A DNA stretch of 64,000 bases from positions 1-64,000 of the IMG/VR virus record IMGVR_UViG_3300024999_000044; one strand, 5' to 3'. The notes under the pieces are model-generated. The model was not told the DNA's origin. It worked only from the letters and a program-made list of their open reading frames with translations, and searched no databases. The position numbers and the translations under genes were made by a program. The DNA comes from a virus. How positions within the stretch are numbered: the stretch's first letter is position 1; each line of letters begins with the position of its first letter. Positions 30,155 to 30,526 of this stretch are shown here, piece by piece.

Positions 30155-30159
30155 GGTAG

Positions 30160-30290
30160 ATTAGAAAATTCTAATTTAGTAATTTTGTAAAATGCTATTA
30201 GGAGTAGCTATATTAGAAAATTCTAATTTAGTAATTTTGTAAAATGCTATCAGGAGTAGCTATATTAGAAAATTCTAATTTAGTAATTTG
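30160..30290. repeat. tandem direct repeats: 2.5 copies of a 52-bp unit containing the palindromic half-site pair TTAGAAAATTCTAA
   Basis: Copies at 30160-30211 and 30212-30263 differ by 1 nt; partial copy at 30264-30290. A related TTAGAAGAATCTAA lies at about 30303. Confidence 0.85.
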
Positions 30291-30397
30291 GCATTTGTAT
30301 TAGAAGAATCTAATATAGTAGTATTTTTTGTTAAAAAGATAGTTGGCGATAACTATAGGTGTTATTAGGTATTTTACATTTGATAATGATGCTATTA

Positions 30398-30429
30398 AAC
30401 AGAGGTATCCTACGTAGGATACCTCTGTT
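30398..30429. repeat. 32-bp perfect palindrome AACAGAGGTATCCTACGTAGGATACCTCTGTT in an AT-rich stretch
   Basis: Read directly. Confidence 0.85.
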
Positions 30430-30526
30430 AGCTGTTTATGGGGATGTAAGGTGGTACTAAGTGTATGCTGAAAAGTTGTTGATAGGAATATTAATGATCA
30501 GAAAGCTTATTAGGTGAGGTGGTTAT

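Follow-up and report, generated by a model that had tools for sequence, protein, structure and literature searches.

Phages of the family Herelleviridae have linear genomes with long terminal repeats (LTRs), and tandem repeats lie beside the LTRs in some of them. In SPO1, a 61-bp repeat (2.3 copies) ends exactly at the left LTR boundary, and 54-bp repeats (two to three copies), each unit with a 14-bp perfect palindrome, GTATGGTACCATAC, start 44 bp outside the right boundary. Locus L058 has 61-nt repeats near its terminus. Kayvirus fRuSau02, whose genome ends were sequenced (PMC5618024), has a gene-free zone of about 680 bp before the LTR, 565 bp of which is annotated as A/T-rich, and its 565-bp tandem zone (12 bp × 47) ends 8 bp before the right LTR start. 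The unit genome of Kayvirus 812 ends in a 35-bp repeat of 2 to >20 copies, which is missing from the derivative 812h1; the authors deem this repeat characteristic of Kayvirus genomes and propose a role for it in replication and packaging (PMC6445280). Tandem repeats also flank the LTR of phiAGATE (PMC3900605). Here we analyze positions 30155 to 30526 of a 64,000-nucleotide stretch of viral DNA (positions 1 to 64,000 of the IMG/VR record IMGVR_UViG_3300024999_000044; referred to as a whole as the window), where 52-bp tandem repeats carrying dyad sites are followed by a 32-bp palindrome. A first, sequence-only reading of this DNA had put these elements forward as a candidate replication origin or multi-operator switch region. 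In our judgment they are probably, with considerable room for doubt, a terminator and a copy-number-variable dyad array in the gene-poor zone before the LTR of an SPO1-like phage.

Because its large terminase (57627-59291) shares 68 to 70% amino acid identity with those of the Bacillus phages JL, CP-51, and SPO1, the source genome is classed as that of an uncultured SPO1-like phage of the Herelleviridae (Spounavirinae-like). The same sequence was found in groundwater metagenome contigs of about 141.8 kb, and one locus (L064) corresponds to the window and is identical to it across 20.4 kb. Near and distant nucleotide searches of the phage collection with the window gave no match, and an Rfam search at gathering and E-value thresholds returned nothing in or beside the repeat and palindrome element. 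The closest relative referred to below is represented by loci L036 to L045, and its gp36.2 is 93% identical to that of the window.

Tandem Repeats Finder reported the 52-bp repeat at 30160-30289 (2.5 copies, 98% matches, score 253), and this is the only sizeable tandem repeat of the window. When placed in register, the array comprises three periods (30141-30296, plus strand). A single position in 52 separates unit 2 from unit 3. The first period is more diverged and covers the stop codon (30152-30154) of the last gene in a series of Cys-rich paralogues, the open reading frame (ORF) at 29714-30154, which suggests that the array arose by duplication of a segment spanning the end of that gene. 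The site TTAGAAAATTCTAA is found at 30161, 30213, and 30265, and the site TTAGAAGAATCTAA at 30300. As a 14-mer, TTAGAAAATTCTAA is an imperfect palindrome; the invariant core is a 16-bp dyad, ATTAGA-N4-TCTAAT, which has no strand. Dyad sites 1 to 3 (30160-30175, 30212-30227, and 30264-30279) all read ATTAGAAAATTCTAAT, with a center-to-center spacing of 52 bp, or about 5 helical turns. Site 4 (30299-30314; ATTAGAAGAATCTAAT) is an older, diverged copy, with 82% identity over 28 nt and both arms intact. Sites of the TTAGAAAATTCTAA type with at most two mismatches gave 9 matches in the window against 0.9 expected, and ATTAGA-N4-TCTAAT occurs in five perfect copies in 64 kb, against 0.005 to 0.01 expected by chance. 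The A+T content is 77% in the array and 76% in the 84-bp spacer that follows (30314-30397, no strand), compared with 58% for the whole window; this spacer holds CATTTGATAAT at 30377-30387, which is kept in the closest relative. The 2.5 tandem copies, the four dyad sites, and the AT-rich stretch were thus all found where the sequence-only reading had placed them.

The array is variable in copy number and is not conserved. Contig k141_465162 (loci L046, L062, and L065) matches the window without a difference across the 4.9 kb upstream and with 3 differences in 7,874 positions on the downstream side, and it has exactly one unit fewer. The comparison covers two assemblies, with two units in k141_465162 and three in scaffold_33, which equals the window; the two differ by 3 single-nucleotide polymorphisms in 12.7 kb. 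At the place of the array, the closest relative has no A+T-rich dyads and carries GC-rich hairpins instead, for example ATACCCCCAGGGGGTAT. The sequence-only reading had itself named a repeat number that varies among isolates as evidence that would speak against it, and such variation was found between the near-identical assemblies, together with the absence of the array from the closest relative. Metagenome scans with the left and right array junctions gave no match. A 20-mer of the repeat unit gave 29 single matches in viral contigs, nearly all within a single unrelated coding sequence for a coiled-coil protein in A+T-rich phages, and these were discarded as chance. The closest relative has a variable repeat of another kind, a 15-bp tandem repeat, GGATGAATTAGCATG, at about 5330-5585 (L036 coordinates), with 10.3, 12.3, or 16.6 copies depending on the sample. 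Two AAAGCGAGCC boxes enclose it, some 60 bp short of the LTR start predicted for that genome, and gene prediction programs call it as an ORF of variable length (62 to 97 amino acids). In the window, the counterpart boxes are at 30941 and 31029, with no array between them.

The palindrome at 30398-30429, AACAGAGGTATCCTACGTAGGATACCTCTGTT, is a perfect one, its two 16-nt halves being 100% complementary, and it occurs once in the window, as the sequence-only reading had it. As RNA on the plus strand it folds into a hairpin of -24.7 kcal/mol (z = -4.9) with a core of 13 pairs. The terminator scan flagged it with 14 pairs, 6 of them G-C, a loop of ACGU, and the tail UUAGCUGUUUAU, an interrupted U-tract that nonetheless passes the tail criterion of the scan (5 T in 8). 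The hairpin is retained in the closest relative, with the stem AGAGGTATCTCA..TGAGATACCTCT compared with AGAGGTATCCTAC/GTAGGATACCTCT in the window; two stem positions are altered on both sides such that pairing is kept, i.e., the changes are compensatory, and the tail there is UUUUAGUUGUUUAC, with UUUU. SPO1, JL, CP-51, and the metagenomic relative L056 all have a hairpin, then a T-run, and then GTATGCC, 560 to 920 nt before the gp36.1 ATG, and the corresponding distance is about 710 nt in the window and 973 nt in the closest relative. The terminators at the right-hand cluster end of SPO1, JL, and CP-51 are like the window's hairpin in having an AGAG(G)-rich stem followed by a T-run, 0.5 to 0.9 kb before gp36.1. 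Unlike these counterparts, which have U5-6 tails, the window's stem-loop is a perfect 32-bp palindrome with an interrupted U-tract. In SPO1, the terminator at the matching position is closely preceded by a pair of repeats with a 58-bp spacing.

On the same strand as the hairpin, early promoters close to the consensus (TTGACT-17-TATAAT) were located upstream, at 21343, 22085, 24389, and 28106. The hairpin follows the stop at 30154 and belongs to an operon whose promoters are those at 24389 and 28106. On the simplest reading, the palindrome is a conserved intrinsic (Rho-independent) terminator, predicted to end the last early operon of the unique region. Because it occupies a conserved terminator position and shows compensatory changes in the closest relative, it needs no origin or operator role, and the part given to it in the sequence-only reading is not supported. 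A small RNA running from TTGGCA-17-TAATAT (30288-30316) to the hairpin was considered and rejected, since this promoter is not kept in the closest relative. In JL and CP-51, a nested-hairpin structure between two terminators resembles a small structured RNA. SPO1 (L031, 2380-3063) and JL (L033, 2130-2330) have in common, in the zone before the LTR, a conserved non-coding sequence after the terminator, tgagtagNNacgatatttaNggc..., with short G-rich repeats behind it; SPO1 gp34.92 and gp34.93 and JL gp221 and gp222, small ORFs annotated in this part, may be spurious. The Cys-rich paralogue family stands in tandem at 25576-30154, with the common motif C..KGY.C.C..C...CPL[FY]GCPK[HY], and appears to be driven by the sigma-A-type early promoters at 24389 and 28106. 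Its last member gave no Pfam or PHROG match.

Downstream of the hairpin, two plus-strand ORFs could be assigned by homology as the first two LTR genes. The ORF at 31138-31401 is the homologue of SPO1 gp36.1 (E value of 6e-11; phrog_32508), and the ORF at 31414-32079 has 44 to 49% amino acid identity to SPO1 gp36.2 and JL gp2 (phrog_1007). The genes gp36.1 and gp36.2 are the first two LTR genes in every Spounavirinae record with defined ends. In records that open with the left physical end, among them those of SPO1, CampHawk, JL, and Goe2, the gp36.2 gene is at about nt 400 to 1160, with matches at nt 402 to 1163, and gp36.1 starts 124 nt downstream of the genome end in SPO1, 75 nt in JL, and 88 nt in EalM-132. 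Unbroken nucleotide similarity between the window and the closest relative begins at 31061, and the block TCTAGGCCCGCCTACCAGAAACATACC resembles the JL genome start, GGGTGCCCGTACC...ACCATACC. Because of the gp36.1/gp36.2 synteny, this onset of similarity, and the JL-like terminus motif, the left LTR end, which would be the physical left end of the genome, is predicted at about 31,064, within TCTAGGCCCGCCTACCAGAAACATA (31061-31085, plus strand). This is 74 to 77 nt before the gp36.1 ATG, compared with 75 nt in JL.

Several other pointers to the terminus were rejected. The starts of Logan contigs at 30400 and 43371 are k=31 graph breaks, caused by the palindrome and by a 45-nt stretch shared with the co-occurring relative, and clustering of CTAG at the boundaries was dropped because CTAG is not rare in the source genome. 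An assignment of gp36.2 as the small terminase, based on the DUF3486 label of some GenBank homologues, was also abandoned: there was no Pfam or PDB sequence match, and the AlphaFold model (pLDDT of 70) gave no Foldseek match in PDB. In some GenBank records the homologues of gp36.2 are labeled DUF3486 or sigma factor, and neither label has sequence or fold support. A search of the viral contigs for gp36.2 relatives found none.

A gene-poor gap of 1.0 to 1.4 kb precedes gp36.1 in every relative examined, namely, SPO1, JL, CP-51, and four metagenomic relatives. The window has the equivalent in a 984-bp zone (30154-31138), within which the repeats and the palindrome lie 630 to 900 bp before the predicted LTR. 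The only conserved gene of this zone is a 95-amino-acid Cys-rich ORF (30527-30814, plus strand), which has 60% amino acid identity to its counterpart in the closest relative and is a real gene; the ORF at 30807-31046 is not conserved there. The remainder (30815-31063, no strand) is a non-coding stretch before the predicted terminus, with AAGAGCGAGCC boxes at 30941-30951 and 31029-31039.

Since the pre-LTR zone of the source phage contains no tandem repeat besides the 52-bp array, we file the array with the known variable repeats beside the LTR in Herelleviridae, with the caveat that it does not adjoin the boundary. It resembles the Kayvirus repeat in belonging to the same family of phages and in lying in a gene-free, A+T-rich place on the unique-sequence side, upstream of the LTR start (a predicted one in the source phage); in both, moreover, the copy number varies between isolates and the locus is absent from some close relatives (PMC6445280). 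The Kayvirus array differs in that it ends 8 bp before the LTR and consists of tens of short dyad-less units, whereas the source phage has two to three 52-bp units that all carry a 16-bp dyad, 750 to 900 bp from the predicted boundary. The likeness to the SPO1 repeats, from the same subfamily, extends to the unit length (52 to 61 bp), the low copy number, the embedded perfect dyad, and the location outside the LTR. However, the two have no sequence similarity, and the SPO1 repeats are 0 to 44 bp from experimentally defined ends.

In the explanation that we favor, early transcription would start at the sigma-A-type promoter at 28106, run through the genes up to the stop at 30154, and be halted by the hairpin at 30398-30429, about 630 bp before the LTR boundary. 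The 52-bp repeats, in the 3' untranslated region of this early operon, would be a recently amplified, copy-number-variable array of the 16-bp dyad and the source phage's form of the variable repeats found on the unique-sequence side of Herelleviridae LTR boundaries. The dyad would be bound by a dimeric, probably phage-encoded protein, and the array would be dispensable like the Kayvirus repeat. Any role of the sites would concern the LTR flanks, as a concatemer junction or packaging boundary or in the insulation of early transcription, and not the initiation of replication.

A number of observations weigh against this explanation. The LTR boundaries of the source phage are predicted by homology alone, and a search for a second copy of the left-end motif, which would mark the right boundary, found nothing convincing. 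The array is 750 to 900 bp from the predicted left boundary, and a terminator and a real gene intervene; this sets it apart from SPO1, Kayvirus, and the closest relative, whose repeats are within about 60 bp of the boundary. Repeats are few or lacking in the pre-LTR zone of JL, CP-51, L056, and L057, so that the trait is common but not universal, and we know of no established function for pre-LTR repeats in any member of the Herelleviridae. The U-tract 3' of the hairpin (UUAGCUGUUUAU) is weak and interrupted in the source phage, and the difference of one unit between the assemblies could be an artifact of assembly, i.e., a collapse. Finally, no binder of the dyad could be picked out among the neighboring ORFs and gp36.2, and the one marginal candidate, an 876-amino-acid protein described below, is encoded 31 kb away. 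On the side of annotation, the analysis places the probable physical left end of the genome of an uncultured 142-kb SPO1-like phage and recognizes a terminator conserved across the subfamily. The 52-bp repeats belong to the variable pre-LTR zone, and the label of an origin is unwarranted.

The fifth perfect dyad (core at 43395-43410) is isolated, 13 kb from the array, within the element GCTTTATTAGAGAAATCTAATACAGTA at 43390-43416 (no strand). The 27-bp dyad element reads GCTATATTAGAAAATTCTAATTTAGTA, and the likeness of this distant copy to the array unit extends to its flanks (22 of 27 positions). It occupies gene-free DNA flanked by the divergent early promoters at 43215 (minus strand) and 43523 (plus strand), and the relative lineage (L051) retains 11 of the 12 arm positions at this 43.4-kb locus. 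Across three independent copies (the array consensus, site 4, and the copy at 43395), the spacer varies but the arms do not, a pattern that fits recognition by a dimeric protein. Because of the isolated perfect copy at 43395, we regard ATTAGA-N4-TCTAAT as probably the binding site of a dimeric DNA-binding protein, itself probably phage encoded. Thus, of the idea that the dyads are functional sites, protein recognition has become plausible with this fifth copy, but the array itself is not conserved.

The neighboring ORFs gave no DNA-binding domain matches in Pfam or PHROG. The only ParB_N match, at 26.5 bits against a cutoff of 26.3, was to an 876-amino-acid protein (61305-63935) encoded 31 kb away, and its candidacy as a binder of the 16-bp dyads is speculative. 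The region right after the terminase gene (59218-63935) consists of a 609-amino-acid ORF overlapping the 3' end of the terminase gene and then the 876-amino-acid ORF, which combines a marginal ParB_N domain and DUF3626 with strong PHROG matches to "ParB-like partition nuclease" and is unusual content here.

The LTR of SPO1 ends just past the last leftward early promoter, and by analogy the dyad at 43395 would be roughly near the expected right LTR edge. The gene-free region 43216-43574 may be the right LTR boundary region. It contains three GTAGCTAGrGGrACsCTTCAT-like boxes (43260, 43313, and 43440), and GGGACCCT at 43318-43325 corresponds to the last 8 nt before the SPO1 LTR start. A non-coding block ends at the 43395 dyad, and 45 nt of it (43357-43401) are identical to the relative. 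Several SPO1 gp51 paralogues (PF26856) are encoded on the minus strand at 38739-43215, every one of them preceded by a TTGACT-17-TATAAT promoter close to the consensus, and their sequences coincide with contig breaks in several metagenome assemblies.

We then weighed other explanations of the same elements. The four dyads and the 43395 site could form a multi-operator cluster, in which a dimeric regulator of the phage or the host binds to control transcription, either by repressing weak promoters nearby or by acting as a roadblock to strengthen termination before the LTR. The perfect 6-N4-6 dyad with its invariant arms, its strong overrepresentation (5 copies against 0.01 expected), the spacing of the centers by about 5 helical turns, and the position of the fifth site between divergent early promoters are what such a cluster would look like, and weak promoter-like hexamers overlap or adjoin the sites. 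However, these promoter-like matches reach only 9 of 12 positions and are no commoner than in shuffled sequence (9 versus 5.7 ± 2.5). Their geometry relative to the sites is inconsistent from one site to another, the strong early promoters lie elsewhere, and the 43395 site is 110 to 180 bp from either of its promoters and over neither. No helix-turn-helix or other regulator gene was detected among the neighboring ORFs, and the closest relative lacks the array, the copy number of which is variable. Comparison by eye with the SPO1 middle and late promoter consensus, the CodY box, and the Fur box gave only partial matches, and these were dropped. We consider an operator cluster unlikely.

Alternatively, the array and the dyad could be functionless, the product of a recent tandem duplication by slippage in an A+T-rich 3' untranslated region. 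The near identity of units 2 and 3 (1 of 52 positions differing), the one-unit polymorphism, and the absence of the array from the closest relative would all follow from this, as would the inclusion of the 3' end of a gene in the first period, and the Kayvirus repeat locus is dispensable (PMC6445280). Neutral slippage does not account for the fifth perfect dyad 13 kb away with 22 of 27 flanking positions alike, for the retention of both arms in the diverged site 4, or for the 11 of 12 arm positions retained by the relative at the 43.4-kb locus. As an account of the locus as a whole, it therefore seems to us quite improbable.

A bolder possibility, which we hold to be a long shot, is that the dyads mark both outer flanks of the LTR, with the array about 0.8 kb before the left end and one site past the right end, and that together with the hairpin they serve as recognition elements for packaging or processing. 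If this were true, the dyads would act, in phages with long direct terminal repeats, as a "pac-like" signal of the boundary, the terminal repeat would be about 12 kb, and the dyad-bearing 54- to 61-bp repeats flanking the SPO1 LTR would be equivalent elements. To our knowledge, no pac-like boundary signal has been defined for such phages. Binding of the dyads by a phage protein at both LTR flanks would offer a handle on how SPO1-type phages define their LTRs and duplicate them in packaging.

The classic comparison for a replication origin is oriLambda, where four repeats of internal dyad symmetry accompany an A+T-rich region and a palindrome. Read in this way, the 52-bp repeats would be bound by an initiator, the A+T-rich stretch would be the unwinding element, and the palindrome would be the accompanying hairpin. 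The anatomy is similar, with dyad repeats, DNA of 76 to 77% A+T against 58% in the window, and a palindrome, and the cumulative GC skew has a maximum nearby, at about 32 kb. Yet the palindrome is accounted for as a conserved terminator, and the repeats are missing in a close relative and variable between near-identical genomes. A GC-skew analysis had been proposed as a check on the origin, and the maximum is not an origin mark because it coincides with a switch of the coding strand at about 34.8 to 35.1 kb. There is no adjacent initiator or other replication gene (the helicase is 14 kb away), the flanking small Cys-rich proteins have no Pfam or PHROG replication matches, and dimer-type dyads at a spacing of 52 bp are unlike classical iterons of 17 to 22 bp. 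What stands of the sequence-only reading is the anatomy itself, i.e., repeated dyads, AT-rich DNA, and a hairpin; its specific origin and operator readings have no positive support beyond that anatomy, there being no replication initiator gene, regulator gene, or convincing promoter beside the sites. An origin here is very unlikely.

The array is also like the sopC locus of the F plasmid in consisting of tandem units (about 43 to 52 bp) with a 16-bp inverted repeat in each. Unlike oriLambda and sopC, the source phage has no adjacent initiator gene or ParA/ParB operon, and its array is not kept in the relative. A centromere of the sopC/parS type was rejected although the unit architecture fits, since no ParA was found and the only ParB_N match is marginal and 31 kb away.

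Three features elsewhere in the window were also recorded. A putative homing-type endonuclease gene (phrog_4645) is located inside the predicted LTR at 33128-33973. Another, with the NUMOD3 motif, occupies 56789-57661, directly upstream of the terminase gene and overlapping its start. A single tRNA-Met (CAT) gene was called at 3982-4056 by both ARAGORN and Rfam.

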